NCBI GenBank assembly: GCA_000002445.1
Contig: CP000067.1
Location: 384,001 to 448,000 of the forward strand
Direction of reading: 5' to 3'
Length of the DNA stretch: 64,000 bases
From: Trypanosoma brucei
Lineage: Eukaryota
The translations under genes and the position numbers were made by a program. Below are positions 12,301-41,932 of this stretch, piece by piece. Under the pieces are notes generated by a model. That model was not told the origin of the DNA. It did not search any database and worked only from the letters and a program-made list of their open reading frames with translations. Position 1 is the first letter of the stretch. The number at the start of each line of letters is the position of its first letter.

Positions 12301-12427
12301 CCCACATAAGTGTATATGTACTTATATACACCGAGCCGCCTGCAACAACCAAAACCAGATAGAGGAAAGTGAAAAAAAAAGGCAGTGGGGAAAATAACCA
12401 TCCCAATTCAGAAACGTAATAAAACAC
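9395..12427 (-). CDS. Large hypothetical protein with helical-repeat (PPR/TPR-like) regions and a poly-Ala tract. Probably a mitochondrial RNA-binding type protein. The called N-terminus is likely over-extended.
   Basis: 1010 aa ORF. It has repeated amphipathic helix pairs (YTWLLHIAAASPSDE, YHYLIVALSATQP, LYRILMEGLGP) and an A9 tract encoded near 9672-9700. The first ~40 codons (MFYYVSELGWLFSPLPFFF...) are hydrophobic low-complexity and overlap a purine-rich-on-plus (polyY on transcript) tract at ~12360-12400. The true start is more likely M41 (ATG 12307) or later. Confidence 0.55.
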   Translation of the reverse strand: MFYYVSELGWLFSPLPFFFTFLYLVLVVAGGSVYISTYTLMWGGVKVRAHHRDIFRAWSASQNLETLRRQLYREPRPWYMAFKLHQHRHLLSDYHCARLLSWCTAVVQLERRPVPKRKAYMYAQHVFQFMVHSHKVGKESYQEFFRLCALGRDVTAAFRWQQYLVEAGQSFPLSHYTWLLHIAAASPSDEITEDMTEGVWEAYLGRYCSPVKNDVTGQTAMAHFQPTTSEEQQELEGLFAAFKALKLRIEPTAKPELLQFIDNLPNTPQVVPGATSWPTVSRHTIFPHMEAAVPWEAPTLVQPRLRDSLLHPSFVADLERTAWTGDVKGVVALVNEYRQRITAEKEQTSATKHRSGERDIWRHYADPAAVAFRRVLVEEGGVTAELYHYLIVALSATQPSLALRTLRRMENAKLRVLDLTRAVMIVRSEGSSEEQLNLLKEGLKSIEERCKIDEDYDVTREVELYWKFNYAEFFHYRNALNGVELYRILMEGLGPVRVQELLVGAKGAVSYPSEDVVVFDEVFRIAVARHYRNCTGEAEVERALDEITQHMPKLDISLVGSCQHFDGYALPPSDAVATDITSLARKLLGYHTIYLLDSSFVESSEAFLGLGSLNEEENGGHSLVLVPYFCLRQISSVLDAPDGEVVSYDEALQEVGKEDQFIASQRLRSLYALLLNDKGNVKRRVLHFSECLLSQIVTGAVDSAGSDNDHLLLVLAMVRAIAPKETNVVLCTDDAHLVQRLRHDEVASLFAGQVNVLSSEPPEGAVIGEGGLVDDNPNLCVGLDFEPKLNFPAAPRRVTGAGEGSVKAADSAHLHTLCGEEVREGGVSWLDMLGDDEDSGKNSEGSVSALLPVNLTENEEKSAQDQMKLMDMYESEHSVVPIGVRMAEASTLGSLFEQFDAVNPDAALEREAAAAAAAAASRKEPGEAHKKHRRLAPLELEQLRNRGASNKQRYRLARRLSNLAGGRVPFNFRYKVVEVDITDERNKTYRDAYSNAVAKKREAFKRHLQR

Positions 12428-14736: not shown

Positions 14737-16263
14737 TCAATTCTTTCCCCTCCTTCGCACTACGATCCACGCCGCCACACCGATGAGGCCGGCCACCATT
14801 GTTGTGACAACGAGTCCAGCCCGACTTACAGACCGCGCGTTAACCGACCCGTCCGCTGGGGGAAGTTCGCCTGCGCTAATCATCTGTTCAATACTCGCAC
14901 GCAATGTCTCCTGCATGGGTGTAAACTTCATGCCCAGCTCAGTCGTTGCTTTGCGCGTGTCCAAGCACTTCCTGACGCCTAACGTACGCCACAGAAAGCG
15001 TATGCTCACCTGTGAATGCGTCGCTCCAATGATGAGTGTCATGAGCGTGTTGGCTGTGCGCGTCGGTGGGGTGAGGTGCGGGTATTCATTTCTGATGAGC
15101 TTCCCAATCTCTGCGAAACTAAAGCACCCGCCGGAGACTATGACCCTCTGATCTTTCACCTCCTGACACTCTAGTGCCCGGACGTGGGCTTCAGCAACAT
15201 CCCGTACGTCCACAAAATTCCAGTGCAAGTTTGGTGCGTATGGGAAGTACGACGAGGCGGTGGCTAAATGTTGTATTCTCTTCATGGCATCACTAACCTC
15301 TTCAGTGCGGCTAGGGCCTATTGTGATGGACGGGAGGATCACCACTAACTCCACCCCCAGCATCTGCTTCAATCTCCATGCTTCCTTCTCAAAATATATA
15401 CGAGCATAAGGAATGGGATCGGTATCGTTTGTTGCGACACTGTTCCAACAGGACTCGTCGAAGGCGCCGGACGGTGGCTCGGGATCCGTGACGTGAAAGA
15501 CGGACGATGCGGCACCGTGTATCACCACTCGCTTTACCGTTGATTTACCAGCCTGCCGAATGGCGTTGAAGAGCGCCTGGACAGCACTTAGGTGAAACTC
15601 AACCGTGTCCTTATCAGTAGAGCTAACGGGACATCCGCAGTGGATGACATACTTGCAACCCCGCAGAGCGTCACGCAGCGAATTTGTATTAGTCATGTCC
15701 GCCTCGAATATAGAAAGTCGTTGCTCGTGGTCGCGACCCACGGAGGAAAGTGCCGCTTGCTGCTGTGGTGTTAGGGCACCACTCCCGGTGATGCGCACGC
15801 TGTAACCTGCCTCAAGCGCCTTGTTGACAACGTGGCTGGACACGTAACCGACACCACCAACAATCAGAACGACTGTCTTGCTTCGGAGGCTTTTGGCGCG
15901 TTCCTTCTCGGTTTCAGATGACAACTGGCTAAGGATTGTCGAAACCGTAGCTCCGGGGGCAATCTTCGGTTGCTGCTGCTGGCCTTGTTGACCTGCGCGG
16001 TGAGGGCTCCCCCGCGTTCCATTTGACAGCGCAACGTCTTCATCGGAGAGAATCTCACCACACGCTGCGTTAAGGTCTAACGTGCTGCCTGAGAACACTT
16101 TATGCAGTGTGTGAGCGCAAGGCTGAGGCCGCACTGGTTGCCCATCCTCGGTGAAATAATCAGCTCCGGGGCCCAGTACATGTGGCTGCTTCACTAAGTT
16201 GAAGTCCCGGACTGTCTCCATATGCTCGAGGGAAAGACAGCTGCCGGAGAATACACGAAGCAT
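14737..16263 (-). CDS. NAD(P)-dependent epimerase/dehydratase (extended SDR, 3beta-HSD / cinnamoyl-CoA-reductase-like) with a C-terminal transmembrane anchor
   Basis: 508 aa. It has the Rossmann motif VVLIVGGVGYVSSHVVNKALEAGYSV (GxxGxxG) and YxxxK-type SDR core features. The C-terminus GLVVTTMVAGLIGVAAWIVVRRRGKN is a TM helix. There is an N-terminal extension of ~130 aa. Confidence 0.7.
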   Translation of the reverse strand: MLRVFSGSCLSLEHMETVRDFNLVKQPHVLGPGADYFTEDGQPVRPQPCAHTLHKVFSGSTLDLNAACGEILSDEDVALSNGTRGSPHRAGQQGQQQQPKIAPGATVSTILSQLSSETEKERAKSLRSKTVVLIVGGVGYVSSHVVNKALEAGYSVRITGSGALTPQQQAALSSVGRDHEQRLSIFEADMTNTNSLRDALRGCKYVIHCGCPVSSTDKDTVEFHLSAVQALFNAIRQAGKSTVKRVVIHGAASSVFHVTDPEPPSGAFDESCWNSVATNDTDPIPYARIYFEKEAWRLKQMLGVELVVILPSITIGPSRTEEVSDAMKRIQHLATASSYFPYAPNLHWNFVDVRDVAEAHVRALECQEVKDQRVIVSGGCFSFAEIGKLIRNEYPHLTPPTRTANTLMTLIIGATHSQVSIRFLWRTLGVRKCLDTRKATTELGMKFTPMQETLRASIEQMISAGELPPADGSVNARSVSRAGLVVTTMVAGLIGVAAWIVVRRRGKN

Positions 16264-18145: not shown

Positions 18146-19528
18146 TCAGTGGCGGTAGTACACAACCTGCGAGTCGGCAGGCACGGGACGCCGGACGATG
18201 GCCCCCGACAGTCCGTGATTGCGCCCGCTCAAGCGGCTGCTCATCTGCAGTTGGTCCCTGCTAACTGTGGTGGCAATAGAAACCCCTACTTTCCTCTCCG
18301 TGGTTTCGTTTGCGTGGCCTGGTGGGCTACCACCGAGAACGGCCATGGACCTTCCCGAGATAAGCTGTTCCGCATCTGCGGTTCGCTTCTCCAATCGGCA
18401 GAGTTCCTCGTTTAGACGCTCGTCAAGGGTATCCATGTAGCTGTTAGTGTCTGGAACCGACGTCGTGGAGCGGTTGTCCATGATTGACCCATCACCGAGA
18501 GACATACGCCTCCTCTTCAAATGCACTTCATCCAGCGAATTTAACAACGACTTTTCATCGAGGCTGTCTCCAAGGAAGGTCGAGCATGTCCCCCACTTGC
18601 GATCTGTGTTTGTAACAGCCGTACTGGCTGAATCACACTCCATACGGGGATGTACTCTCGGTGAGACGCGACCACCGGAGCCGCTTGTTCGGGTACCGGA
18701 TGCACACGCATTTGCCGCTGCCTCCGATTCCCCTTCATGCTCAATCGAGAGAACATCCATCGATGCGTTTAACGACCCGTTCAAAGCCAATGGCGCTTGA
18801 GTGTTTGGCAGAGCTGCGAGTATGGGACTGCACCGCACGGTTACAACGCGCTGCTGCTGCCTCGCGGCCGCCCCAATGAGCCTTGACCTCACAGGGTGCC
18901 GAAGCCGCTTCCAAGGTACGTTGGTGTAGATTGTGGGCAGTGGGACTATGCACTCCGATTCGCCTGGTGGCAAATAACATTGCGTTCCCTCATCCGCTTC
19001 CTGCACCACCGGTGGCCCCTTCACTGTTTCGCTTACGCAAATACGTGCCAGGACAACCTGCATCCACACTCGGTTCATGATTCCCACCTTATCACCAACT
19101 CGGAGGATGGTGGACTCGTTGCGACACAAAACGGTTGTTCGACTCTCCTCCACCGCCTGCAAACTGCTGCAGTTTCCCACGGTCTCCCGGCGGACGACCG
19201 TCAGGGGGTTCTCGCCAACGCACGTAAGTACAAGGCAGTAGGCGACCTGTGGGTGGATTGGCGTTGCAGCCGCATGATGAACATCTGCGCTGTCGAATGT
19301 TTCCTTCTCACTCGCCTCTACAGCAAATGTCATCACTCGTCGGGAACACCGGGGGTTGTTCCCAAGATGCCAGTAAAGTTCTGGCGAGTGCCTGCCTAAG
19401 ACTGGCGCCTTAGCAGCAGACAGCGGAAACGGGAAGTCCACATGATGTTCATTTGGACGGCTGCTGATGTGTGCTAAAAAGCAACGCAGCTCCATTTCCT
19501 CCTGGGTGTCGAGTGGAAACAAGAGCAA
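18146..19528 (-). CDS. Hypothetical protein, 460 aa
   Basis: Long ORF co-oriented with the array. It has mixed-complexity composition and a short coiled-coil-like C-terminal segment (LNEELCRLEKRTADAEQLI). No recognisable catalytic motifs. Confidence 0.5.
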   Translation of the reverse strand: MLLFPLDTQEEMELRCFLAHISSRPNEHHVDFPFPLSAAKAPVLGRHSPELYWHLGNNPRCSRRVMTFAVEASEKETFDSADVHHAAATPIHPQVAYCLVLTCVGENPLTVVRRETVGNCSSLQAVEESRTTVLCRNESTILRVGDKVGIMNRVWMQVVLARICVSETVKGPPVVQEADEGTQCYLPPGESECIVPLPTIYTNVPWKRLRHPVRSRLIGAAARQQQRVVTVRCSPILAALPNTQAPLALNGSLNASMDVLSIEHEGESEAAANACASGTRTSGSGGRVSPRVHPRMECDSASTAVTNTDRKWGTCSTFLGDSLDEKSLLNSLDEVHLKRRRMSLGDGSIMDNRSTTSVPDTNSYMDTLDERLNEELCRLEKRTADAEQLISGRSMAVLGGSPPGHANETTERKVGVSIATTVSRDQLQMSSRLSGRNHGLSGAIVRRPVPADSQVVYYRH

Positions 19529-20418: not shown

Positions 20419-22065
20419 TCAAGGAACCAGCGCATCAGTGTCATCTGTATTTTTCGTGCGTTGCCGCAATATTCTAATAAATTTTTTTACTAGTTCCATC
20501 ACGTAAGCATTTACGTCCTGTGGATCTTTGGGTTCATTCGCCACAAAATCCCAATTTTTGTCGTGTTCCTCGCCGAACTCGACAAGTGAGTATCGAGCCC
20601 CTAGACACAACTGCATCCCAACCGTCCTATTCACCGTGCCCTTAACCAAGTAAGAGATTTTCTCAAAGCTCCTCTTCTCCTCCACGCGAAGGGTCTTAAC
20701 CTGTCCGAGAACCAGCTTCTTTGACTGACGTTCTGCGACCACGCGTGGTTTTGCACTACCAACTTGCCGACCGTGACGACTGATGCTGCATTGGGAAGGC
20801 GCACGTTGAATTGGACATGACGGGTTGTTCGGTTCAGGAACGCTATTACTGGAGTCGGACTCAATGTAAAGCGAAGAGTCAACGAAGCCCAATGTGGCTG
20901 AAAAGAAAGTTGGAGCAATGATTGTGTAGATCCTTTCGTATGACTCTGCGAGAAACTCATCTTTCCACACCTTTTGTAGCATCATGACTGGGGTCCAACA
21001 CGTGTCCAGTTCGTGAAGCAACACCAGAGCTCTTTGCAGACGCTTGAAGATGCTCCGCTGCACCTTTAGTACCCTACGACGTCTCCGTGGGAATTGCAGC
21101 TGCATTGTTTCTTTCAGGTCCTCCTCAACACTATCCAAAATACCACCAATATTGAACTCCGTCTCGTTTCGTAGATCGTCAAAGGCAACATACATTTCGC
21201 ACTTCATCTTGAAGGCTATAGCGAAGGCAGTGAACCGGTTAATCTCTCCCAAAAGACGCACGCAACGGGCGCGAAGTTCCAAGTGGAGTTGGGCTTCCTC
21301 CTCCGTTTCCACTCCGATGGAGTTGATGAATGTCAAGGTATATTGTAACATCCATTCGGTGGCATAAATGGTGCTCGAGAGAGCCACAGTGAGTGGTACG
21401 ATGTTGGAATATGCAAAATCCGCAACCTCCTCCGCACCTTCCAATGGTTCGCTTCCCTCCGGTTGGATTGGGAGTAAAACTTTAACGGTCGGATCCCCCT
21501 TCTCCACCACCGTAAGAACAATGGTAAGTGCCTCCAAAACATCCTCGAAGGTAAATGGTGCACATCCCTGTCCGATCCGTTCCCTTGCAACCCGTATATT
21601 TTGGTCAAGCTGCTCAGCAACCTCTTGCAGCGTTTCAACCTGCACGTCAACGGTCGCGAAGTCCTTCATCACCGCAGATGGTGATGTTTCCAGAAGTGCG
21701 GCACCGTCCAGTGGTGGACAAGGTCGAGAGCCCCCATTATTACTGTTGACTTCGTCGCCCCCAGCCGATGGTTGTGCGTCTTCTTCGCACAACAGAGAAG
21801 GATTTATTGTGGTTTGTGGTTTGTAAACACCCTTGTGCACACTCTGCTTCGCTGCTTCTCCAATGCCACAACCCAACATGATTCCTTCCACGTGGGACTG
21901 AAGTCGCAGCTTCCTTTGCTTCCGAATGGCTTCGTTTATGCCTGCCTCCGCCTCTTCACGGTTGTAACCATTCTTAAAATCACCGAACTCCATAAAGAAA
22001 GGTCGCTCAAAATTTAAGTCACTCATGGTGCAAAAATCGCGTAACAAAATCAACTTCCAATCCAA
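20419..22065 (-). CDS. Hypothetical alpha-helical protein, 548 aa (possibly a helical-bundle trafficking/tethering factor)
   Basis: Long ORF with protein-like composition. The helical regions are amphipathic. No diagnostic motif found by eye. Confidence 0.5.
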   Translation of the reverse strand: MDWKLILLRDFCTMSDLNFERPFFMEFGDFKNGYNREEAEAGINEAIRKQRKLRLQSHVEGIMLGCGIGEAAKQSVHKGVYKPQTTINPSLLCEEDAQPSAGGDEVNSNNGGSRPCPPLDGAALLETSPSAVMKDFATVDVQVETLQEVAEQLDQNIRVARERIGQGCAPFTFEDVLEALTIVLTVVEKGDPTVKVLLPIQPEGSEPLEGAEEVADFAYSNIVPLTVALSSTIYATEWMLQYTLTFINSIGVETEEEAQLHLELRARCVRLLGEINRFTAFAIAFKMKCEMYVAFDDLRNETEFNIGGILDSVEEDLKETMQLQFPRRRRRVLKVQRSIFKRLQRALVLLHELDTCWTPVMMLQKVWKDEFLAESYERIYTIIAPTFFSATLGFVDSSLYIESDSSNSVPEPNNPSCPIQRAPSQCSISRHGRQVGSAKPRVVAERQSKKLVLGQVKTLRVEEKRSFEKISYLVKGTVNRTVGMQLCLGARYSLVEFGEEHDKNWDFVANEPKDPQDVNAYVMELVKKFIRILRQRTKNTDDTDALVP

Positions 22066-22345: not shown

Positions 22346-23311
22346 TCACAGTTCCAAATCCTTGGTTAAGAGGAACCAAAGCAGAATGGCAACCATGATC
22401 ACGAACGAAACAACCGTGGTAGTGGTATCCCTTTGCTCGCCATCCATGGGATTCTCAAAGTAAAACGTGAGGACGAATATTTCGTCCTCGGGTTTAAGCA
22501 TTATCTTGGTATCCTCAGGGCTGAGGTGCACCGTGCAGTACTTACCGCGCAACCGCCAGTCCAACGCCTGCGTACCGTCACGACTGTTTGCACTGCTGAC
22601 CAACTTTACCACTTTCGAAAATACGGTTTGATATACAATTTCCTCTGGAAGACAGGGTGCACACGCAAAGGGGTAAGCGATGACGATGGCCGGCAAATTC
22701 GTCAGCTGTCGAACTGACTTTGTTGTCCAACGAATTTCAAGCTGGATCTCATTCCCAACACCCCTCTCCGTTTCGTCCAGCACATCTGAAGCCCTTGAAG
22801 CTACAGCGTACAAAGTTCCACGCTCACCCTCCTCCTGCTCAGCCTTTCCTTCCATACCAGCTGCTGCGTCGAACACAGCGGGACAGAGAACCAATGGCCG
22901 CTCCGATGGTGGGCTGACAACGCGAACCAACTCCCACATCATGATCTTCTTGTTTATACGAGCGGAAAGTGACGTTAGAGTTCCATCACACGCACTAACC
23001 GGGAAAACAAAGGAAAAGCAACCCTCGGATGTATGTTCGATATGATACGTTGTCGTGAGGTGGTACACCAATGTCCTTTCCGTTGCCCTCATTCGCAGCT
23101 TGCATGCTGTGCAAGTCAACGGTGAACTAATGGTGTCTGCCCACGATCGCAGCCGCTCCGACACCTTCGGGTCGGTGGCATTTCCATTTCCGTTGGGTGT
23201 AACTGACTCGCTGTTACTCTTAACAGCGTACAAACCTGAGAGGAAAACATCCTTCCGACGCCCGACAACACCCACTGGTGAGTCTAAAGGCATTGGCGGC
23301 TGCCGCGCCAA
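22346..23311 (-). CDS. Hypothetical tail-anchored membrane protein, 321 aa
   Basis: There is a single C-terminal TM helix (VVSFVIMVAILLWFLLTKDLEL) immediately before the stop. The rest is soluble, with a beta-rich composition. Confidence 0.5.
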   Translation of the reverse strand: MARQPPMPLDSPVGVVGRRKDVFLSGLYAVKSNSESVTPNGNGNATDPKVSERLRSWADTISSPLTCTACKLRMRATERTLVYHLTTTYHIEHTSEGCFSFVFPVSACDGTLTSLSARINKKIMMWELVRVVSPPSERPLVLCPAVFDAAAGMEGKAEQEEGERGTLYAVASRASDVLDETERGVGNEIQLEIRWTTKSVRQLTNLPAIVIAYPFACAPCLPEEIVYQTVFSKVVKLVSSANSRDGTQALDWRLRGKYCTVHLSPEDTKIMLKPEDEIFVLTFYFENPMDGEQRDTTTTVVSFVIMVAILLWFLLTKDLEL

Positions 23312-24939: not shown

Positions 24940-26232
24940 CTACTTGCCGTACTCTGTGGAGATAATTTGTTCACCTTTTCGGATGAGTTCATTCGTGATA
25001 ATATCTTGTTGGTGAGCCACAGCCGCTGAGGGTACGTAATCCTCGGGTGGCGTACCACACGACAAACGCCACATTTTTTCTGCTTCGGAGTCCTTTCCAC
25101 AGACAGGTGCCATTGTCTGCATACAAATCTCTTCACCTGCCCTGAGCGCCCTGGCGGGGACGACGTAAATCCACTTTCCGTCTTGCTCACACATGAAGTC
25201 GTACTGGTGATGTCGCGCAAAGTATGCAGCCATGCGTGTAGCAGACGATTGTTGGGACGTCCGCGCAACAACAAGCGAATTTGTGTTCTTCCCCCCATGC
25301 GGAAATAAGTGCACCATTGGAATAATTCCAATTGAGCGTGTCGCCCCAATCACTAGCGGAGTGGAGTGCGATAAACAAGTACTCACTGCCCACCTTAACT
25401 GAGCTCTGTCAACTTTACCCACAAGGGGACCACCGTTGATATAATTCCGTATCATCTGTAGAAGCACATCCGCCAGACCTGTAGCTTCTGCGTCTAGTAC
25501 CACATCGTCTTCAAAGTATGGGGCGTTCTTCATGGACCGGACCCTTCCCAGAAGCTCAGCGAAGGCCCAGCGAGGATCAGTCAATGGGCTGCCTATAGAA
25601 GTTATGAGATCAGACACAATCATACCCAGTGAGTCAAAGAAGAACTGGCATATGTCCGCATCGCTTTGCTCTCCCGTATTCAACTTATTAAACTCCTTTT
25701 CCCTCTCCTCGTCCCGTAGATTATTCTCTGCCTCACTTGTATCTTTAAAACCGATGGCAAGTGCCTCTGGAATAGCGAAAAGCGGTGTTAACCGATCCAC
25801 ATCTTCGGTGACAACGAACGCGTGGTCACGATAGGGTGATGGTCGTCTATGAATCCGGACAGTCGGGTGGATAAAAATGTGTTGATCGTGACACCACATC
25901 ATTAGTCGATAGTAATCATGTGCATCAGAGTACTGAGACAAGTGCTTCGCGTGATGAAGGTAAAGCGCACGACGGTGTGCAGCATGGAGGGCCATTTTGT
26001 TTTCGCTAGCGTTAAGCTGTGCGTTTTCGTCACCATCATCATTTTTGTTGTCACTCGCATCTTTCCCTTTGTGTTTCAAAACGCTTCCTTCAAGCGCCGG
26101 AAGCCATTGCACAAGGTTACTCACGCAACCTCCATTGCCGTTGGGTTTTAACGAGGGTTCCTCTTCCTTTCCCCCTCCGGTACCCTCCTGACGCTTACAT
26201 GCCCTACTCCATAGTAACAAGGGTGACAGCAT
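24940..26232 (-). CDS. Hypothetical protein, possibly a SET-domain (SETD6/RBCMT-like) methyltransferase
   Basis: 430 aa. The segment IGIIPMVHLFPHGG resembles the SET NHS/pseudoknot region. ALRAGEEICMQTM resembles the SET C-terminal GEE(l/i)xxxY motif. The assignment is weak without an HMM search. Confidence 0.5.
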   Translation of the reverse strand: MLSPLLLWSRACKRQEGTGGGKEEEPSLKPNGNGGCVSNLVQWLPALEGSVLKHKGKDASDNKNDDGDENAQLNASENKMALHAAHRRALYLHHAKHLSQYSDAHDYYRLMMWCHDQHIFIHPTVRIHRRPSPYRDHAFVVTEDVDRLTPLFAIPEALAIGFKDTSEAENNLRDEEREKEFNKLNTGEQSDADICQFFFDSLGMIVSDLITSIGSPLTDPRWAFAELLGRVRSMKNAPYFEDDVVLDAEATGLADVLLQMIRNYINGGPLVGKVDRAQLRWAVSTCLSHSTPLVIGATRSIGIIPMVHLFPHGGKNTNSLVVARTSQQSSATRMAAYFARHHQYDFMCEQDGKWIYVVPARALRAGEEICMQTMAPVCGKDSEAEKMWRLSCGTPPEDYVPSAAVAHQQDIITNELIRKGEQIISTEYGK

Positions 26233-26607: not shown

Positions 26608-27450
26608 TTAGTGCATTTGGCTCCACCCCTCCTTCTTAAAAAGTTCTTTTGCCTCCAATTGACGGACTTCCCAGTCTTCCAGCTCGGTTTCCGTGTAGGT
26701 GTGGTGCCTTTTTCCCTCCTCCGCATCTTTAGCCAACCGCGCTTGCGCGAAGTGGGCTTTAATGTCGAACTCTTTCACCAGTAACCGGCACGAGGGAACA
26801 GTACTAATGATCTGCTTGCGAAACTTTTCATCCAAAACATAACGGTTGCTTTCTACCACAACATTATGCTTTTCGCTGATATGCCTCACAATCGCATTAA
26901 TCATAGCAGCACACAGTTCGTCTTCTTTGGAGAAGTCATCAAACTTTCCTGTAATTTCTACCCTCAACTCATCTTCATCGACAATGCGGCACGAGTCATC
27001 ACACCGCCCCTTGTATTGTTTCAACCACGTTGACTTTCCGCTACCAGGCATGCCCACAAGGAGGATAACTTTAGGGTCGGACCTCTTGCGCTCCTTGTGC
27101 TTTCCACGACCACTGTTTTTACCACTTCCACTTCCACTTCTCCTTCGACTGCGGCGCTCCTTCTTTGCCCGTGATCTCGGGTAATAGCGACGCACTGCAT
27201 ATGCGATCAACAGATTCAATAAGATGACGAAAAGCGAAAAGAGAATTCCTCCTACGAGAAACCGGCGGGTCCTCGGCACCAAAACGCCGCCTAAAACACC
27301 ATTTTCTTTCATTTGTGCGGTATATATTCGCTTATTCGTGAGTGTTTCCCCTACCCTTTTGATTTCCCTCCTGACCCCTTCTTTGCCTCTCTTAACACCC
27401 TCGGGCTCTGATAAGTAACAACAGATCGTAATACAATCTTTCCCGTGCAA
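26608..27450 (-). CDS. P-loop NTPase / AAA_33-type small kinase domain protein with an N-terminal transmembrane helix
   Basis: The Walker A motif is LLVGMPGSGKSTWLKQY and a Walker-B-like motif is RIVDEDE. An N-terminal TM is present (ILFSLFVILLNLLIAYAV), followed by a basic Ser/Arg-rich linker. Confidence 0.65.
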   Translation of the reverse strand: MHGKDCITICCYLSEPEGVKRGKEGVRREIKRVGETLTNKRIYTAQMKENGVLGGVLVPRTRRFLVGGILFSLFVILLNLLIAYAVRRYYPRSRAKKERRSRRRSGSGSGKNSGRGKHKERKRSDPKVILLVGMPGSGKSTWLKQYKGRCDDSCRIVDEDELRVEITGKFDDFSKEDELCAAMINAIVRHISEKHNVVVESNRYVLDEKFRKQIISTVPSCRLLVKEFDIKAHFAQARLAKDAEEGKRHHTYTETELEDWEVRQLEAKELFKKEGWSQMH

Positions 27451-28094: not shown

Positions 28095-29174
28095 TCAACC
28101 GGATTCCACGGAAAGAGTGAGACCGAAACGGATGGGACTGTTCTCCACCAACACGTTCTTCTGCGCCACCAAACCCCAATGCACCACGCCATTAAATATG
28201 CCACGAATGGTTGCCGCACATAAGCCACCGCTCTCCGCCTTGAATGCTCCTACAAACGGGAGAATGGCGGTCCATACGTCCAACTGCTCACACGCCCGCT
28301 GCTGCAGAATCGTGGGGACGCGAAGCCGAAAACCCTGTGAAAATCCCAGCGAGACATGTACGCGTGACTCCTCCATATCGAAATTGTATGCGCAGGCCAC
28401 CGATGTGTCGGGCACCACGCGCTGATAAAAAGCAATGCGTGCCGCGCTCCACATATCGTTCGCTCTCACTAACTTTGCACCAACGGACCAATTCACCCCA
28501 GTAAAGCCAACCCCCGCATAAAGCACGTCCAACTGCGCGGTGTGATCCTGTTGCTCAAGAAACGAAACTTTCTGCCGCTCAAATCCGGCACCCGCAAGAA
28601 GATTAAAAAATTTCGTGCCACAATCAACAAGCAAGTCACTGCTTCCCAATCCGTTCCTCTGATAGTTAAGTGTGGAATAGAAGTCACGACGCTGGTAATC
28701 CATTGCAACGGACCACACATCTTTTGACGGAGGAGCAATTGTGTTTACTGCGAGACGCCCTTTTACCTCCATTCCCTCGAGAAGATCACTAACCTTGACG
28801 CTACCCGATGCCAACCCCTCGCTGTTCACAGCAATCCCTTGCTCAAACCGACACACCTGCGGCACGTGAACACCACTGTGCAACTTCACCTTCCCATGGT
28901 ACCCTCCGTCTCTGTTGAAAATTAGACGGGGCGAGAAGTACATAAAATTTTGCGTTTTCCTCAACTCGCCTCCTCCTGCTTGAAGGCTCTCATCCGAGGG
29001 CTGGTCAGTCGTCGCCGAAGGCGGGGAGGTGAAGAAGAGTTGTTCACCCGGAAAAGACTCGGAATACTGCCTGGACTTGACTGCAGCGAATAGAAACGAC
29101 TCATCTCTGAAAGTTTTCTTCAGGAAGTCGTCGACGATGTTGAAGAAATCATTTAATTTTGCCGGAGGAATCAT
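28095..29174 (-). CDS. Mitochondrial outer-membrane beta-barrel protein of the porin-3 (VDAC/Tom40-like) superfamily
   Basis: 359 aa. Over ~280 aa the residues alternate hydrophobic and polar, as in amphipathic beta-strands. It is rich in Gly/Ser/Asn turns. The C-terminal last strand IRFGLTLSVESG fits the mitochondrial beta-signal Po-x-G-x-x-Hy-x-Hy (R-F-G-L-T-L-S-V). An N-terminal amphipathic helix is present, as in VDAC/Tom40. Confidence 0.6.
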   Translation of the reverse strand: MIPPAKLNDFFNIVDDFLKKTFRDESFLFAAVKSRQYSESFPGEQLFFTSPPSATTDQPSDESLQAGGGELRKTQNFMYFSPRLIFNRDGGYHGKVKLHSGVHVPQVCRFEQGIAVNSEGLASGSVKVSDLLEGMEVKGRLAVNTIAPPSKDVWSVAMDYQRRDFYSTLNYQRNGLGSSDLLVDCGTKFFNLLAGAGFERQKVSFLEQQDHTAQLDVLYAGVGFTGVNWSVGAKLVRANDMWSAARIAFYQRVVPDTSVACAYNFDMEESRVHVSLGFSQGFRLRVPTILQQRACEQLDVWTAILPFVGAFKAESGGLCAATIRGIFNGVVHWGLVAQKNVLVENSPIRFGLTLSVESG

Positions 29175-29439: not shown

Positions 29440-29462
29440 TATATATATATATATATATATAT
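29440..29462. repeat. (TA)n microsatellite
   Basis: Direct read. Similar (TA)n/(AT)n runs occur at 13387-13404, 13694-13713, 31832-31853, 37131-37147, 37311-37331 and 43259-43281. Confidence 0.95.
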
Positions 29463-29960
29463 GTACCCCTTCCCTTTCGCACTTTAGTGTCGCGGTAATA
29501 ATGTCAACAGCAGCAAAGGCAGAGAGGTAAAGCAGCTCGCGTGAAAAAGAATTACAACCAGGGGGGGGGGCCGAATCACGGACTGCGATAGCATATTCAT
29601 CGATATGTTCATGTACGCATCTATGCATGAGTAAACACACATATACATACACATGTGTATAGTTACAAGTGAGAGTACAATTTGCGCAACACACTTCCCG
29701 TGCGCAAGTGTACACGACCAGTTTCAGTGGGATGTTGCAGTTTCCGCTGAAACAAACCTCTTCCCCATTTCCCCTTTCCAAAATACTGAAGGAGGCCGAC
29801 CCCGTACGCTGCACCAATGGAGACGGGGTGGACGACAGGCTAAACCAAGATTCATGACAACATCTTGACGACGGCACCATAACAGTGTTTAAATATGTGC
29901 GACGGAATAGAATATGACTGAAGTAAGTGTGGCTACAAGGGTTGAAGAACCCCCTTTATT

Positions 29961-30312: not shown

Positions 30313-31773
30313 TTACACAATAATGGACGAGACAAAACTGACGAATCGCGCTGCGTATTCCTTCGGCGGCACCGCCGATATCTTCTGCCTGTCTTTCAAC
30401 ATTCCGAACACAAGGGTTTCCATACTCTTCCGAGAATTGTACTCCTGCAATATGTCAATGATCCCAATATAATATATTTCCCTCCTTCCACCGGGGTGGT
30501 CTGCGCTCATCATACCGCCCTGATCCGCTTTGAAGCACCGCCCGTCGGTTGGTGCGCTGTCGGCAGCCGCGGTTGGATGTCCATTCAAAGCCATGGGTTG
30601 CATCGTCTCACCCATGCCTAACAGATAGGAAGGTTCCAGTGCACTCGTTGCAAGCGCTGCTGCCCCACCCAAGTACTCTCTGCTTCCCGTGCTTGGTGCT
30701 GGGCGATGTGCCTCGTACATGGGAAGCACGTGAATACCTACAAGAAACGAGTAGTCCATGATATTACACTGGTTCAGGAATCCACAGTCCATTTTCATTT
30801 GTTCAATGAGAAGGTTACGCCTAGTGGCGCCCACATGAAGGGGACGATTTATATCCAAATCCTTTTGTGTGCATGTCTGCTTTTTCTTTTCCGCCTCAGT
30901 CGCAAAACGACCGACCGTACTCCCCTTCAGGTCGTATTTTTCATGGATTGTGTTTCCTGTGACGAACACATTCTGCATAATGATAATGTACATCTTCTCT
31001 CCGTTGATTTCAAGCCGGTGGTGACCGACAAAGTGTGGTAGGAGCGTATAAGGATGGTCTAGCACAAAAAAATAGTAGCGATGTAATATGCGCCGTAAGA
31101 ACTTGCTCTCTTCGTGTGTCATGGTCTTGATCACCCAATCCCTACCACAGAAGAATAGTTGCGCGGCGGACTTACCTGGTGTCGGTGTGCTGTGCCAGCG
31201 GCTTCGCAACAGGACATCGCGGTAGGCCCTATGGTCGATATTGAAAAATTCCCGAATGTGACGATAGCACATGGGCGAGTAGTCCACAAATGCTAACGGC
31301 ACATTCGGGACCTCATCGTGGGACTCCACATCACTTTCATCTAAATGACTTGCCTCCTCACTGTCACCATGTGCATCGTAAAAGGGTGCATGGTGGTTAC
31401 GCTGTTCCCTTACACCAGTTGCCGCCGCCGTGCTGCAACAGAAACCTGGCTTAGGTTTTTCTACCCCCACATCCAGATTAATCTTTGTTTTTATGGAGAA
31501 ATCTCGCTTTGGGTTTAGCGGCCGCTGTTTGGCCGGATGGGAGATGCTCGTGATGCTCTGCCCCAACGCCCATTTCATACAGCGTATCAAGTTAATCGTC
31601 GCCTCATTTTGCCTCGGCTCATCTCTTTTATCGCAAGACTTGACTTCGAGGTTCTTTGGCGGTTCCTCCGTAGGAGTGCGACGTGCCGCTATCTCCGCTG
31701 AGGAAAGGGGTCCAGATTCAAAGGAGATGGCGGCAAGTATTTCTCTATTGAACGGCATGGCTCCCCGCGCCAA
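30313..31773 (-). CDS. PIP5K: Phosphatidylinositol-4-phosphate 5-kinase (PIPK family)
   Basis: It has PIPK catalytic-core signatures: MYIIIMQNVF, the G-loop-like DLKGSTVGR, DCGFLNQCNIMDYSFLVGIH (catalytic MDYSLL-type motif) and the activation-loop IYYIGIIDILQEYN. Confidence 0.9.
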   Translation of the reverse strand: MARGAMPFNREILAAISFESGPLSSAEIAARRTPTEEPPKNLEVKSCDKRDEPRQNEATINLIRCMKWALGQSITSISHPAKQRPLNPKRDFSIKTKINLDVGVEKPKPGFCCSTAAATGVREQRNHHAPFYDAHGDSEEASHLDESDVESHDEVPNVPLAFVDYSPMCYRHIREFFNIDHRAYRDVLLRSRWHSTPTPGKSAAQLFFCGRDWVIKTMTHEESKFLRRILHRYYFFVLDHPYTLLPHFVGHHRLEINGEKMYIIIMQNVFVTGNTIHEKYDLKGSTVGRFATEAEKKKQTCTQKDLDINRPLHVGATRRNLLIEQMKMDCGFLNQCNIMDYSFLVGIHVLPMYEAHRPAPSTGSREYLGGAAALATSALEPSYLLGMGETMQPMALNGHPTAAADSAPTDGRCFKADQGGMMSADHPGGRREIYYIGIIDILQEYNSRKSMETLVFGMLKDRQKISAVPPKEYAARFVSFVSSIIV

Positions 31774-32436: not shown

Positions 32437-34647
32437 TCACGATTTGTTTTTCTTTCCGAGCCGAGCTTTCTTGCGGTTTGCACTCCCAGTTCCATATTGC
32501 TGACGCAGCGAGATGGCACCTTCCTTCAGCTCAAGCGGTTTCTGGGTGGGTACATCGATTTCTTCCACTTCATCCTTCACCTCAAGCCCTTCATGGAGAC
32601 ATGGGCCAGCCATTCCTTCTCCTCTTTCGCTGCTGTTTTCCCTTTCGACGGTTGGTTCCTCTGCATCAACATGCACCCGTTTTTCCTCTTCCTCACCCTC
32701 ACCCTTTACCTTCATCTCTTCCACTTCCCGCGCCCGCTTAACCGCAGACATCCGTGTCACCACATCATGACCAGGAAGTGCAATAGGGTAGTAAGGTTTC
32801 CTGCGGAGGATGGCAGCAACATTCCGCATCGTTTCAAACCATGCAGATGGCTCCGTGCGCACCACAACATGCGCGTCTTCTACAGTAAATGCCGGGTCCG
32901 CACGCTGCTCAATTGAAGGGAGTGTGCCGGTCATGGAGCGATGAACACCCATGTATCGCAAAGCAACCCCAACATTTGGTAAGGGTTTGGGTTTTACATC
33001 ACCATTTGCTCCATCTTTTAGGCTATCAGCACTTCCGATAGCATCTTTCACTATCTGGAGCAGCTTCATAACATTTGTGCGCACAGCAACACTTACTGGA
33101 CTACAACACTTAAGCACCTCGTTTGCCGATGTGGGCAGCTTTGTCGCGATAGACAACACGCACGAAATATGCATAACAGCTGAGGGAGAGTCGTCCGCTT
33201 CCCGCGCCGCCATGTCCCGCCAGTTAAATATCTCGCGTGCCACCTGCAGCTGAGATGAAGAAAGACCACCCAAGCTCCTTCCAAGTGCCTGCTTGTATGT
33301 AACATCAGGGTCGAGATGTGGCTTCTCGTAGCGCTCCAGCGATAGAAGGCGGCTCTCTTGAAATACGTGAAGCAGCATGTTTCCAACAGAAGCTCGAGCC
33401 TCGCAATTGAGTAACAACTGCTTCAAGCGATCGTAGACATAGAGCAAGAAGTGTGTATCTTGCTGGGCATAGGAAACCATCTCTGCTGGAATGGGCCGAA
33501 CACGCCAGTCCGCAGTCTGGTACTTTTTGTTGAGTTTCACCTGGCAGAAGTGATCCACCGCGAACGCCAAACTGTGTGGCATGTGCAGATTCTGCAATGC
33601 TATACTTGTGTCAAAGAGGTTCACGATGTACAACCCGAAATCCTTCTGCAGCCACCGAACATCTTCTCGCGCACCATGGAAAACCTTCACAATGTTTGGT
33701 TGCAAGAAAACGGGGGCCATCAGGTACATGTTTGCGCGCACCTTAAGACAGTCAACGATGAAGTCCTGGGTGCGAGTGCTGATCTGCATGAGGCATGTAA
33801 AACCTTGATACGAGTAGAAATCATGGTGCTCCAAGTCGACAGCAATTTCCGTCTCATTCAGCAGCACTGCCACAAGTGCTTCAAGGTCCTCCACCGTATC
33901 GACAAACGTCAGAGGACACGTGACTAGTGAAAGGTAAGGAGTTTCAGTTTTGAGCAGCAGTTGCTCTGAGGGAACAGACACAGCCTTAATCCGTTCCGCA
34001 AAGGGATGAACACCCGGTTCCCCGACGTGACGTACGCCCTTTTCGTCGTAGTAGACTGGACGGAAAGGTGTGGGACTGTTGTCTACCGGATGTTCAAATG
34101 TGAGTTGCGGCCTCAAGACACTTACACCGGCTGCGTTAAAGACAGAATAAGAGGAAGACGGGACCACACCCTGCAATTCTGATCCAAACTTCACGGATAG
34201 TTGATCCTTAGCACTTAAACGTCGCCCCTTTAACTCATCCAACAAACCATCAACATTCTCCAGTAACGAATCCGCAGCTTCCATCACAGCAGCTCGCTGA
34301 GGGTCTGTTAGTTTCCCTCCTGTACTTGAGAGGGTGACACGCCGCTTAGCCGGCAGCAACTGACAGAATTTATCCATCAGGGAAACGACAGCCTCACTGT
34401 GGCGAGTGATTTGATGCCTGAACGCAGGAAAAGCCATATGGTAATCATAGTCTTCCTCCGCGAGATCCGCTGTTAACTTTGTGTATTCCTTCACGAGCGT
34501 AAAGGCTCCGTTCACAAGGTCCTTTGTTTGTGGAAGAGAGCCAGACATATACCCGACTCCTTTTGATAATGTTAGTGGAAGAAATATTTCGGCACGCGCG
34601 TGCCCGCGTGTTTGGAAAAGATGTATGGAAACAAGCATCAAAAGCAT
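32437..34647 (-). CDS. RRP6: Exosome-associated 3'-5' exoribonuclease RRP6 (RNase D family, DEDDy) with an HRDC domain
   Basis: It has an N-terminal PMC2NT-like region. The Exo I motif is IAVDLEHHDFYSYQGFTCLMQIST (DxE). The Exo III motif is YAQQDTHFLLYVYDRL (Y-x3-D). An HRDC-like segment follows (LQVAREIFNWRDMAAREADDSPSAVM). The basic C-terminal tail is KKARLGKKNKS. Confidence 0.9.
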   Translation of the reverse strand: MLLMLVSIHLFQTRGHARAEIFLPLTLSKGVGYMSGSLPQTKDLVNGAFTLVKEYTKLTADLAEEDYDYHMAFPAFRHQITRHSEAVVSLMDKFCQLLPAKRRVTLSSTGGKLTDPQRAAVMEAADSLLENVDGLLDELKGRRLSAKDQLSVKFGSELQGVVPSSSYSVFNAAGVSVLRPQLTFEHPVDNSPTPFRPVYYDEKGVRHVGEPGVHPFAERIKAVSVPSEQLLLKTETPYLSLVTCPLTFVDTVEDLEALVAVLLNETEIAVDLEHHDFYSYQGFTCLMQISTRTQDFIVDCLKVRANMYLMAPVFLQPNIVKVFHGAREDVRWLQKDFGLYIVNLFDTSIALQNLHMPHSLAFAVDHFCQVKLNKKYQTADWRVRPIPAEMVSYAQQDTHFLLYVYDRLKQLLLNCEARASVGNMLLHVFQESRLLSLERYEKPHLDPDVTYKQALGRSLGGLSSSQLQVAREIFNWRDMAAREADDSPSAVMHISCVLSIATKLPTSANEVLKCCSPVSVAVRTNVMKLLQIVKDAIGSADSLKDGANGDVKPKPLPNVGVALRYMGVHRSMTGTLPSIEQRADPAFTVEDAHVVVRTEPSAWFETMRNVAAILRRKPYYPIALPGHDVVTRMSAVKRAREVEEMKVKGEGEEEEKRVHVDAEEPTVERENSSERGEGMAGPCLHEGLEVKDEVEEIDVPTQKPLELKEGAISLRQQYGTGSANRKKARLGKKNKS

Positions 34648-35187: not shown

Positions 35188-36513
35188 TTAAATAGTTTCT
35201 TCCGACCTTGACCTCCCCTCATATTTCCCAGAAGATGTCAGAAGAGGGGTATTCCTTCCCCACACGCTAAACCCGGCGACGTGCAGGAGAGGCCCCACCC
35301 TGCCACTATCCCTCTCCCGACTCGCACAACCGTAAATCACGCCACCGACGAGGCCGAGAGTTATTCCCACGTAACCCGTTTTCGTTGGAAACTGGTTAAA
35401 CACAACCATCCCGGCAACTGACATGGGTACCTTGTTTACCACCCCAACAACACTGAAGGTGGTGGGTGTTGTTTGCTCCATACACCAAAAGGTGGCGAAT
35501 GTTAGTAGAGGCCCTGTTCCCGCCACGGTAAGAGCTAAAAGAGGTGGAAGGGAGATGCTGCGAATGGTGTGAATCATGCTCCCCATGGAAGGGAGCGCAA
35601 TCACAAACGCAACAAGCATTGAAAGTAAGTTATTGTAAAACACAGGCCCATAACGGCCGATTGTTTTGCTCACATCTCCCAGCAGCCGCTTCATGTACAA
35701 CGTGTACCCCACAGTCGCCATTATGTTGAGAGTCGTCCAAATCATTCCCCATGTTGTCACCCATTGGTCTCCCATTGCGCAAAGATAACTTCCGGCTGAC
35801 ATAAAGAAAAAAGCCAAGTACATTACGGGCGTCACACGCGTGCCGTACAGCTGTGAGTCACCAATGGCGGTGAGCACGACTGCAATGTTCTTCATGATTG
35901 TGTGCATCGCCACCGACATGGTTTCAAGACTTTTAATAGATGACCACAACATTGCAACGAAGAAGAGTGTAAGGGGGAGCCACTTCCTTGCCACTCTCGA
36001 GCAGAAGTTCGGATAATAAACCCATCCCATCATTTTCCCCATAACTGCAAAGAGCAGAGCGGTGCCACTCTCCACGAAAATAATACCCATAGGGTAGTTT
36101 AGAGCGTAGTTAGCAACAAGTAACTTGTTAGTAATAGTCATGACAGTACTAAAAATGCTGTAAACTACAATTGATGCCATGACCTCAACGGCCCCGTCAC
36201 GCGCCGTCATATGACCGGATATGAAATAATGTTTTGTTTCCTTCGCTTTCCTCGTATTAAGAAAAACAACAGCTGCGACAAATGGCCGAAGCCCCAGCGG
36301 CTGTTGCGCTGGTGCGTTGGCGTGTCTCTTCAAAGGGAAGGCAAGTCCTTTCTGTGAGCTGAAACAAAGGAAACCCGCATCATTTTGGAGTACGCACGTA
36401 AAGGAACCAGTGGAAAAAGGAAGCAAAGATAAATTATTAAAAAAAAAAGGAAAACAAATAATAATTAAGGGAAAAGCGGCAAAATCAGAGACAGAAAAGG
36501 TAAAAAGGGTCAA
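35188..36513 (-). CDS. Nucleotide-sugar transporter (TPT/DMT superfamily). The called N-terminus is probably over-extended.
   Basis: About 10 TM helices with the TPT-family organisation. The first ~100 codons are low-complexity and overlap a purine-rich (polyY on transcript) tract at 36410-36510. A plausible true start is MTARDGAVEVMASIVVYSIF (ATG ~36210). Confidence 0.65.
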   Translation of the reverse strand: MTLFTFSVSDFAAFPLIIICFPFFFNNLSLLPFSTGSFTCVLQNDAGFLCFSSQKGLAFPLKRHANAPAQQPLGLRPFVAAVVFLNTRKAKETKHYFISGHMTARDGAVEVMASIVVYSIFSTVMTITNKLLVANYALNYPMGIIFVESGTALLFAVMGKMMGWVYYPNFCSRVARKWLPLTLFFVAMLWSSIKSLETMSVAMHTIMKNIAVVLTAIGDSQLYGTRVTPVMYLAFFFMSAGSYLCAMGDQWVTTWGMIWTTLNIMATVGYTLYMKRLLGDVSKTIGRYGPVFYNNLLSMLVAFVIALPSMGSMIHTIRSISLPPLLALTVAGTGPLLTFATFWCMEQTTPTTFSVVGVVNKVPMSVAGMVVFNQFPTKTGYVGITLGLVGGVIYGCASRERDSGRVGPLLHVAGFSVWGRNTPLLTSSGKYEGRSRSEETI

Positions 36514-37894: not shown

Positions 37895-39580
37895 TCACCG
37901 TGATGTGATTGCTGCAATAAGTCTTGATACTCGAAACAAACGATAGTGAAGGAACCCGTCTATAACAAACATACCGAAAAGAAGAATGGAAAGCACACCA
38001 AATGGAACAAATCCCATTACAATAGTTCTGTTTAGCTTTCGAGTACATGGGGCCCCCTTCCATTCACCTTTACAAACTCCCCAGAGACATGTTGGGGAAT
38101 CTCTATCCACATCACAGTTTTCATTATATCCCCTACACTCATTGCTTTTGTAATACGCACACAACGCAATTGGATCCTCTGCTCTTTCCCTAATGTAACT
38201 TTGAATGCGCGGAAATGATATTGCCTCCGCTACCGCCAAAAGTGCGAGAGAACAAAAACCGATGGCAATACCAACCGCTGCAGCTCGCAACATGGCGTGA
38301 GGGGAAAACCTTACCGGCATTCGCATTCTGATGGCATGAAAAGCTGTAACAGCACTCGCAAACAAACAATGGAAACAACCAATCAATATGGGCGAAATGT
38401 AACGAAACATATAACCATTTACAATTCCATTGCGGCCACCTATAAATGTATTCGCGGCCACTGTCAGTAACATAAGCGTCATCAGAGATTGTACAACGGC
38501 TAGCCAAAAGGTTTGCATGGGAAGACGTGTCAGAAACAGAATACCAGTTCCGCTAAACAGCCCCGGGGGCGCCCGAAATAACTGAAGCTGTATTCCTACT
38601 CTCGCATCTGTGGGCCGCGAGCTACACTTCGCTATGTTTTTATCAATATTTGCCAGAGCCGCAAGTTCCTCCTTCGCCACCGACACTAAAACATTATCAT
38701 CAATGCCCTTGTAGTTGCACTTACTTTCAACAAAGGACCGTAGAGTTAAACTCTGTTCCTTATTCTCTCTACTGGCCGACACCAGAAACCGACGCACGTA
38801 CATGCGCAGACACTGCATGTCAAAGAATTTCTTGGAGGAATGACGAAAAATAGACATAAAACTGCTCCTCTGATCATTCCCAACCACAACATCGTGAATT
38901 GCAGAACGCGCAAACGTAACGTAAGGAATTGGACCGATAGATCCTGCACCACAAATGAGCTTTTGACGTTCCGACTGCGTCTCCGCATCTCCTTTACCCC
39001 GCCGAGAGTTAACATAAAACAGCGAGAGAAACATCGACCTTCGGTTGTTTTCATCTGCAGGTGCGCCACTCGCAACACCGCTCTCGTCCACTTCTTCAGT
39101 CGATCCATTGTTCTCACCCCAGATATTCTCTCGCGTCACTATATCCTTTTCATCTTCCTTACTGCTACCCTCCTGCGCTTTCACTTCCCTCCTTGCGTTC
39201 CTCTTGGTTTTTTCTTGTTCCAACCGCTCTCGGCGCTTTAGAAAATCATCACTAGTGAAGCGGTTCACATTTAGCAGTGTTATCGTATTTTTGTTTACCA
39301 TGCTTACATATCCCTCATAATGTAAAAACAATGTTTCATCATTCACTACTGACTCACCGAGAAAGGAAATGCACCTCCCGATAAGTTTAAAATCCTGCCA
39401 ATGTAGCTTTGGAAGATTTCTACACGGCTCGTCAAGCATAATTACAGCCTCAGTAGGAGTACTTGAGGTTTGGCATTCCTCTGCAGCATCCGGCGCTGAA
39501 GTTTCAACATTTCCCTCAAGTGGCGGCACCGGCTCCACCTCGTTACCAGCGCCGTCACGTCGTTGGGGATTCTCCGGCAT
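37895..39580 (-). CDS. Hypothetical multi-pass membrane protein with a Cys-rich C-terminal segment, 561 aa
   Basis: The N-terminus is an acidic/Ser-rich soluble region. The C-terminal half has 6-7 hydrophobic helices and a Cys cluster (CAYYKSNECRGYNENCDVDRDSPTCLWGVCKGEWKGAPC). Confidence 0.55.
   Translation of the reverse strand: MPENPQRRDGAGNEVEPVPPLEGNVETSAPDAAEECQTSSTPTEAVIMLDEPCRNLPKLHWQDFKLIGRCISFLGESVVNDETLFLHYEGYVSMVNKNTITLLNVNRFTSDDFLKRRERLEQEKTKRNARREVKAQEGSSKEDEKDIVTRENIWGENNGSTEEVDESGVASGAPADENNRRSMFLSLFYVNSRRGKGDAETQSERQKLICGAGSIGPIPYVTFARSAIHDVVVGNDQRSSFMSIFRHSSKKFFDMQCLRMYVRRFLVSASRENKEQSLTLRSFVESKCNYKGIDDNVLVSVAKEELAALANIDKNIAKCSSRPTDARVGIQLQLFRAPPGLFSGTGILFLTRLPMQTFWLAVVQSLMTLMLLTVAANTFIGGRNGIVNGYMFRYISPILIGCFHCLFASAVTAFHAIRMRMPVRFSPHAMLRAAAVGIAIGFCSLALLAVAEAISFPRIQSYIRERAEDPIALCAYYKSNECRGYNENCDVDRDSPTCLWGVCKGEWKGAPCTRKLNRTIVMGFVPFGVLSILLFGMFVIDGFLHYRLFRVSRLIAAITSR

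Positions 39581-39867: not shown

Positions 39868-39905
<38 letters not shown>
39868..39905. repeat. (AT)n microsatellite, ~19 units
   Basis: Direct read: an uninterrupted run of at-dinucleotides in the 2.35 kb spacer between the 37895..39580 and 41933..43120 genes. Confidence 0.95.
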
Positions 39906-39909
<4 letters not shown>

Positions 39910-41932
39910 ATATATACGCTGTTGAATGCCAAACACAACCTCCTTCTCTTTTTTTCTTTTTCTTTTTTTGCTCCCCTTCCAATTCTTAACTTCCAGCTGG
40001 CACTTCTCTTTTTTTTTTTTAACTTATATTTCCTTTACCCTCTTCTCCTTCGCCACGTGTTCTTCCAGCCACAGTTTAGTTGCACGAGGCCACGTGTCTC
40101 TGCCCTAAGAAGAAAGAAGGAAAAGAAAGAAAAAAGTGACGTGTGATGTTGTCACGTTTGTTTTTATTTCAGCTTTCTTCTCTCTTTTTTTTTTTTTGCG
40201 CTTTTCTCCCACCTACTTTTGTTGCCTTTGAATACAATTTAGCACTTTTACATACGACTAAATGACAGTATTTGTCAAGGAAGAAAAAAAGAGGAGAAAG
40301 GAAGAGGAGAGGAGAGTAATTAGTGAAGTAGTTACATGCAACATCTAGACAAATTTATACATTTCCGATTATTTATTTTATTTTATTTTATTTTATTTTT
40401 TGCATCCTTCCACCCCGTCATCCATCCATTCCGCATGTTTCCTTTTTTTTTTTCCTCCCTCTCTTTCTCTTTGTTTAGAGGACGAGTCTCATCGCAAGAG
40501 TGCAATACACTCGAGAAGTGGGAAACACAAACACAAACACAAAAAAGAAAAAAAGAAAACAGAAAGAAGGGAAGTAATGGAAAGAAAGAATATCGACCAC
40601 AGTTTCGTTTGGTGAACTGCGTGCATACATGTGGTGCGACAAAAGGCACATGCACACACACACATGCACACACATAAAAAAAAAAAAGAAAAAAAAACGG
40701 AACCGTAGACACAAGGAGGAGGAGGATAATAATAATAATAACAATAAAAGTCATAAAACTTTATTATCCGTCTCCATACGCTCCCCTCCTTTTTTTCTTT
40801 TCTTCCTCATTCCCACTTTCCGTTTTATCTGATTGCACTTTAAATAATATTAAGTTTGTCTGTTGTTTCTTCACCTTCAGACATCTCCAGCTATCATACA
40901 GAAACATACACAGAAACAAACACAACCTCTTCACTATTCTTTCACACAAATGACGGTACGCTGTTGGTCAGTCCGATCAAGTTAATAAAGAGAGAAAAAT
41001 AAGTTTCATCAGCATCAACAACACCGCCATCAACACAAAAAACAAAAAACAAAAACATCAACAACAAAAACAACATCAACACACAACGAACGAGGACAGG
41101 TTAGGCCACTGGGGGGGGGGGGGCGGAGGACTTGCGAAAAGTAGTAGAAGGGAAGGTGGGAAAAGCTGAAAAGAAGAAAGAAAAAGAAAACACAACGCGA
41201 CCGGCGCGCAGCAACGTGATCTAAAGTGTGTGTGCATGTGGCAAACAAACTATCGGCATCAGTAACCAAAACAGAAAGTGGGTGAGGCGTGAGAGAAAAA
41301 AGACGAAACGGCAATAAGTGATCCCGAAGTGAGGTAAGTGGGCTCAAGTGCACACGACGATATGATGCCACGCTTAATGAGAAAAACACCCCGAAGGAGA
41401 ACAACAGCGACAACAACAACAATAGAAAAGGATGAAAAACAAAACCCGTATTTACATCCCTCCTACTCCCCACAAAAGCCGTACGAATCACCACATCGCG
41501 ATACATGGAAATGATGATACCTCTTATTCCCTTACCATTTATGCACCGAACCCACTTTCTGTTTGTTGTTTGTTGTTCCATCTCCACTCCTTCTTTTCCT
41601 TATTCCAACGGCTTCCACCGTTCCTGCCACGGCGGCAGTTTAATTACTGCGCCTCGTATTCCCTTCCATTGATTCGGCATCAAATATAGCAGCGGAACCT
41701 CCCCACAGCACTCCTCATTTCCCCTACGCATGCATGCATGTGTATGCGTATGTTTATGTCTGCGCACGTCTGTGTGTGTGTCTGTGCATCTTCCATAGCT
41801 TCTTTTTTTCCATGTAGTTTTGGCAATCCCAACAAGCAAGCGAATTCAAAAGCGACGCCCAATTAAACGGGCACACCACTCGCTGCCACACAACTGCATC
41901 CGGCCTCCTGCTTATTCTTTTCCCTCTCCCAT

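Follow-up and report, generated by a model that had tools for sequence, protein, structure and literature searches.

TAC40, a porin-type barrel of the kinetoplast segregation apparatus, as the very probable product of a minus-strand gene of Trypanosoma brucei

Introduction

The mitochondrial β-barrels of the porin superfamily (VDAC, Tom40 and Mdm10) serve different ends: VDAC is a metabolite channel, Tom40 and ATOM40 are the protein-conducting pores of import translocases, and Mdm10 is a fungal subunit of the ER-mitochondria encounter structure (ERMES) and the machinery for sorting and assembly (SAM). TAC40, listed as Tb927.4.1610, a 40-kDa VDAC-like β-barrel of the outer membrane, serves as a structural subunit within the tripartite attachment complex (TAC), by which kinetoplast DNA (kDNA) is segregated. 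Here we analyse 64,000 nucleotides of Trypanosoma brucei DNA (contig CP000067.1, positions 384,001 to 448,000; this whole stretch is called the window), in which an open reading frame (ORF) at 28095..29174 on the minus strand encodes, with a probability that we put at about 0.96, TAC40: a 19-stranded porin-superfamily barrel that acts as a structural subunit rather than a channel.

The original TAC40 study is reportedly that of Schnarwiler et al. from 2014, the year since which the protein has been in the literature. Later papers dissected its targeting signal (Käser et al., 2017; PMC5764417) and the assembly pathway of its oligomer (Stettler et al., 2025). According to the published work, TAC40 is located exclusively in the TAC, and its depletion leads to missegregation of kDNA. 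It forms a complex with TAC60 and with a second, non-porin barrel, TAC42 (PMC5764417). On its own it forms an oligomer of ~535 kDa on blue native polyacrylamide gel electrophoresis, predicted by AlphaFold3 to be a planar ring with 6-8 copies; TAC42 and TAC60 join this oligomer in two steps (~770 and ~920 kDa). The working model of the TAC40-assembly paper, citing earlier work, has the protein imported via ATOM and inserted by Sam50. γL262P bloodstream cells, which can survive the absence of kDNA, do not need TAC40, an argument against a role in general transport.

Identity of the window gene

The original prediction had placed a 359-residue protein at 28095-29174. The ORF is real and lies, as we add, on the minus strand, where it runs from ATG to TGA over 359 codons (ORF list and translation); the plus-strand frame across the same interval is full of stops. 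Its translation is identical to TREU927 XP_844311.1 / AAZ10752.1 / Q581S0 (T. brucei brucei) and also to a T. equiperdum protein, has a calculated mass of 39.6 kDa and ends in ...NSPIRFGLTLSVESG. The gene and the parts of its product discussed below are as follows.

28095..29174, minus strand: TAC40 coding sequence, 359 codons plus the TGA stop at 28095-28097; exact match of the translation to XP_844311.1/Q581S0
29112..29156, minus strand: N-terminal α-helical segment, residues 7-21 (model helices 7-10 and 16-21)
29064..29099, minus strand: strand β1, residues 26-37 (26-31 and 34-37 in the model, counted as one)
28947..29063, minus strand: β1-β2 loop, residues 38-76, low-complexity, of species-variable length and modelled with low confidence
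28107..28946, minus strand: strands β2 to β19, residues 77-356
28272..28313, minus strand: β15-β16 loop, residues 288-301, the second length-variable loop
28107..28130, minus strand: β-signal in the last strand, R349-F-G351-L-T-L354-S-V356, residues checked

What ties this protein to TAC40? The decisive link is at the level of single residues: R, G, L and V stand at positions 349, 351, 354 and 356 of the window protein, and these are the residues mutated in the published TAC40 (PMC5764417). The locus tag of the T. b. equiperdum copy, DPX39_040018800, indicates chromosome 4, and organism, chromosome tag, size (359 residues, 39.6 kDa), 19-strand porin-type fold and β-signal residues all agree with Tb927.4.1610; no difference was found. 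The window gene and TAC40 are in all probability the same gene, and the protein is already known, not new. The original prediction had entertained an additional member of the small kinetoplastid barrel set; that suggestion falls, because the protein is very probably TAC40 and so belongs to the VDAC-like proteins to which the prediction itself alluded. This analysis itself shows which sequence this is, what fold it has, how many strands there are and that a conserved β-signal is present; localisation, the RNA interference phenotype, the requirement for the β-signal, oligomerisation and the order of assembly are taken from published experiments.

ATOM40 was a first guess, suggested by the size of the protein and by the name “suppressive immunomodulating factor” carried by relatives (discussed below). 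It was rejected because ATOM40 is Tb927.9.9660, a different gene on chromosome 9, whereas the tag of the window protein points to chromosome 4; the protein also fits the TAC40 mutant numbering. Moreover, published clustering links TAC40 to VDAC and sets ATOM apart. An ATOM40 or ATOM40-like import pore thus has next to no chance of being the product of this gene.

Predicted fold

An AlphaFold2 model built on an alignment of 37 sequences, of medium confidence (predicted local distance difference test, pLDDT, 76.4; predicted template modelling score 0.63), consists, in its DSSP assignment, of a helix at residues 7-21 followed by 19 strands: a kinked strand at 26-37, its segments 26-31 and 34-37 being counted as one, and eighteen strands between 77 and 356. 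This is the number that the original prediction had expected of a porin-type barrel, here with an N-terminal helix in addition. The helical segment carries a family-wide motif, V14-D-D-F..K20-T-F-R23, in which V14, D15, D16, K20, T21, F22 and R23 are invariant among 37 orthologues.

The nearest structural neighbours of the model are solved VDAC, Tom40 and Mdm10 barrels. Foldseek against the Protein Data Bank (PDB), a test named in the original prediction, comes out in its favour: human VDAC1 (template modelling score on the target 0.71, E 2.6e-8), yeast porin and Tom40 lead the matches. Soluble β-sandwich proteins, named there as the finding that would speak against a barrel, are absent from the 50-60 top matches listed in either structure search, so this objection does not apply. 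The fold, the Foldseek matches and the published β-signal data together support the VDAC/Tom40-like outer-membrane barrel proposed there. Its claim of hydrophobic/polar alternation throughout the protein was right in part: the β-periodic hydrophobic moment is raised over residues 77-356 (z = 2.4, a value reached by 18 of 2000 shuffles) but not over residues 1-76 (z = -1.1), which the model builds as helix, one strand and loop.

A Sam50/Omp85 protein (a 16-stranded barrel with POTRA domains) was considered as well and set aside: neither the window protein nor its orthologues have an Omp85 (Bac_surface_Ag) or POTRA match in Pfam, the model has 19 strands, and no Omp85-type structure appears among the top matches listed in the structure searches.

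Two loops depart from the regular barrel. In the β1-β2 loop, pLDDT falls below 50 at residues 41-72 and the alignment has large gaps (columns 59-120); the β15-β16 loop (alignment columns 340-395) is longer by up to ~45 residues in the orthologues of Leishmania and of bodonid type, and pLDDT dips to 60 in the block 291-300. Both are odd-to-even loops in a 19-strand barrel and should therefore lie on the same face. This face would be turned to the intermembrane space if the C-terminus is there, as has been stated for TAC40 in print, or if the topology is VDAC-like. More speculatively, the variable loops could form a lineage-specific docking surface for TAC42 and TAC60.

The β-signal

Mitochondrial barrels carry their address in the last strand, and the original prediction had pointed to such a signal at the extreme C-terminus. 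The octamer RFGLTLSV (349-356) matches the pattern polar-x-G-x-x-hydrophobic-x-hydrophobic, ends three residues from the C-terminus and lies inside the modelled strand 349-356. It is found at the same alignment site in 36 of 37 kinetoplastid orthologues; across these 37 sequences neither G351 nor E357 varies, the residue at 349 is R, K or Q throughout, and the one at 354 is L, I or M. This conservation lifts the match above chance.

The experiments were done on these very residues. Käser et al. (2017) made G351A (“1mut”) and R349A/G351A/L354S/V356S (“4mut”) variants of TAC40; mitochondrial targeting was “dramatically impaired” in both, and membrane insertion of 4mut was down by 70-80% (PMC5764417). 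The octamer picked from sequence is therefore the experimentally validated β-signal, required for mitochondrial targeting and for membrane insertion.

Weighing the assignment

Several observations weigh against the assignment or leave it less direct than one would wish. First, similarity to porins is barely detectable without structure: Pfam Porin_3 gives the window protein 14.5 bits (E 0.024), where the cut-off is 28.4, and reaches E < 1 in only 11 of the 37 orthologues (best 0.0044); searches of PDB sequences with phmmer and with the family profile (hmmsearch) returned nothing meaningful; and an hhalign comparison between the family profile and one human VDAC1 sequence (verified against PDB; not a VDAC family profile) was not significant, with a probability of 0.6% over 25 columns. 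Second, the β-signal motif is loose: shuffled protein sequences contain 2.0 matches on average, a match starts within the last 20 residues in 7% of shuffles, and a second one, SQGFRLRV at residue 279, lies inside the protein itself. Third, barrel closure and the parallel β1/β19 seam would follow from a 270-residue superposition on VDAC1. Finally, that XP_844311.1 is Tb927.4.1610 is deduced from its mass, from the chromosome-4 tag and from the agreement at four residue positions. On the first of these points, published profile-profile searches gave full-length matches connecting TAC40 to VDAC (PMC6193526).

If the fold is that of VDAC, why should the protein not be a pore? VDAC1 and yeast porin are the best structural matches, and the helix and 19 strands are arranged as in VDAC, which would suit a second outer-membrane porin that conducts small solutes. 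However, identity to VDAC in the structural matches (mouse VDAC1 3EMN, human 6G6U, yeast 9JVQ) is 11-13%, the Porin_3 match is sub-threshold and no sequence match is significant; TAC40 is published as residing exclusively in the TAC, and its dispensability in γL262P cells goes most of the way to refuting a channel. We consider a VDAC-type metabolite channel very improbable. TAC40 also has a disordered β1-β2 loop of ~40 residues and the variable β15-β16 loop, both of which VDAC lacks, and it is a scaffold in a DNA-segregation structure where VDAC is a metabolite channel.

The remaining relatives differ in their own ways. Mdm10 (7BTY_L) is a weaker structural match to TAC40 than VDAC or Tom40; its lineage is fungal and amoebozoan and its partners are ERMES and SAM, whereas the TAC40 lineage is kinetoplastid and the partners are TAC42, TAC60, pATOM36 and TAC65. 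TAC42 (Tb927.7.3060), the partner barrel in the TAC40 complex, has a C-terminal β-signal of the same pattern (R380, G382, A385, L387) but, unlike TAC40, is described as belonging to neither the porin nor the Omp85 family (PMC5764417); the window holds no TAC42 gene.

Assembly and function

How would a barrel of this kind come to hold DNA in place? In the published pathway, TAC40 would be synthesised in the cytosol and use the ATOM complex to pass the outer membrane; its C-terminal β-signal (R349-x-G351-x-x-L354-x-V356) would then be recognised by Sam50, leading to insertion into the outer membrane. Self-assembly into a ring-like oligomer creates the platform that binds TAC42 and TAC60, and this subcomplex merges with pATOM36/TAC65 into the outer-membrane TAC module. 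The module, in turn, is connected by p197 to the basal body and by TAC60-p166-TAC102 to the inner membrane and the kDNA side, so that replicated kDNA segregates with the flagellar basal bodies.

In TAC40 a barrel with the porin fold, that of a channel, has become a structural connector in the apparatus by which trypanosomes segregate their single mitochondrial genome; the protein is both essential and parasite-specific. The present analysis adds no more than an independent check, in which sequence sufficed to recover fold and targeting signal. It also shows that a sequence-only reading, that of the original prediction, can recognise a divergent mitochondrial barrel missed by Pfam.

Family range

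Full-length orthologues occur throughout trypanosomatids, with identities of 75% in T. congolense, ~44% in Leishmania and ~37% in bodonid-like sequences. The family is small: an exhaustive profile search of 1.84 billion representative proteins returned only 22 at E <= 1e-3, and every relative with a named organism is a kinetoplastid. No recognisable VDAC set was retrieved by the TAC40 family profile (22 representatives), and the same exhaustive search gave no evidence of TAC40 relatives beyond Kinetoplastea. The divergent homologues (P0050-P0062, environmental; P0059 comes from Neobodo designis, a free-living kinetoplastid) are 282-481 residues long and share an N-terminal F-x-x-x-D-x-F-F-x-K-x-F-R-D plus SPR motif, and most have a β-signal-like C-terminal end; the Neobodo-type homologues, of about 300-330 residues, are without the long β1-β2 loop.

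The TSIF name

A different function is implied by database names. Three full-length orthologues with 66-70% identity (P0003, P0004 and P0006, from T. grayi, T. rangeli and T. theileri) are called “putative suppressive immunomodulating factor” (TSIF), and reviews present TSIF as a membrane protein; its recombinant form is said there to induce TNF and nitric oxide and to activate macrophages. Might the gene encode, instead of or besides a mitochondrial barrel, a parasite protein that is released or bound to the surface and that drives suppressive M1 macrophages? The equation of TSIF with the window gene is tentative and comes from record names; the literature searched gave no gene identifier for TSIF. 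Insertion into the mitochondrial outer membrane that depends on a β-signal, and exclusive localisation to the TAC, do not befit a surface or secreted protein, and the window protein has no signal peptide or features of a secreted protein; any activity of recombinant TSIF may be owed to the preparation as such or to release by dying cells. We regard this reading as improbable, and the name on TAC40 orthologues may be a legacy or mis-propagated annotation. A real second role of the mitochondrial barrel, for example release from dying parasites followed by direct action on host macrophages, is a speculation to which we give slightly more credit, and still little.

Genomic surroundings

TAC40 lies in a window that is one unidirectional trypanosomatid polycistronic unit with no strand switch. 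All 25 gene-like ORFs of at least 200 residues in window positions 1-64000 are on the minus strand, and the two plus-strand ORFs listed for the window each fall within a longer minus-strand ORF. Of 32 2-kb intervals, 31 have a negative GC skew (cumulative -2.86). The genes for PIP5K, TAC40, the AAA_33 kinase-like protein and a 430-residue protein follow in the same order on a T. equiperdum assembly contig. The recognisable neighbours are listed here with ORF starts set at the first ATG, GTG or TTG, which probably makes them too long; called genes (L001) of 234 and 481 residues stand as 280 and 486 residues in the ORF list.

4959-8285, minus strand: P4-type phospholipid flippase ATPase
14737-16263, minus strand: NAD-dependent epimerase/dehydratase
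26608-27450, minus strand: AAA_33/KTI12-like P-loop kinase
30313-31773, minus strand: PIP5K lipid kinase
32437-34647, minus strand: RRP6-like 3'-5' exonuclease (PMC2NT, DNA_pol_A_exo1 and HRDC domains)
35188-36513, minus strand: TPT-family sugar-phosphate/nucleotide-sugar transporter (sub-threshold match)
41933-43120, minus strand: mitochondrial carrier with three repeats
45633-47255, minus strand: right-handed β-helix protein
47770-48750, minus strand: RMP (retinal maintenance) domain protein
50137-52389, minus strand: protein kinase
52987-53730, minus strand: rhodanese-domain protein
54498-55547, minus strand: NDK7-like nucleoside diphosphate kinase, PH domain at the N-terminus
57720-58988, minus strand: EF-hand protein

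Seven further long minus-strand ORFs (305-1010 residues) have no Pfam match at E <= 0.001 and are presumably kinetoplastid-specific proteins:

9395-12427, minus strand: Pfam-less ORF
18146-19528, minus strand: Pfam-less ORF
20419-22065, minus strand: Pfam-less ORF
22346-23311, minus strand: Pfam-less ORF
24940-26232, minus strand: Pfam-less ORF
37895-39580, minus strand: Pfam-less ORF
63058-63975, minus strand: Pfam-less ORF

Neither the Rfam nor the tRNA scan gave a hit in the window, and a tandem-repeat scan of the window returned one (TA) microsatellite only. This (TA)25 tract, at 39868-39916, is in low-GC intergenic DNA (GC is 0.39-0.43 across 36-42 kb); the TAC40 start codon has a shorter (TA) run ~270 bp upstream, at about 29441-29465.
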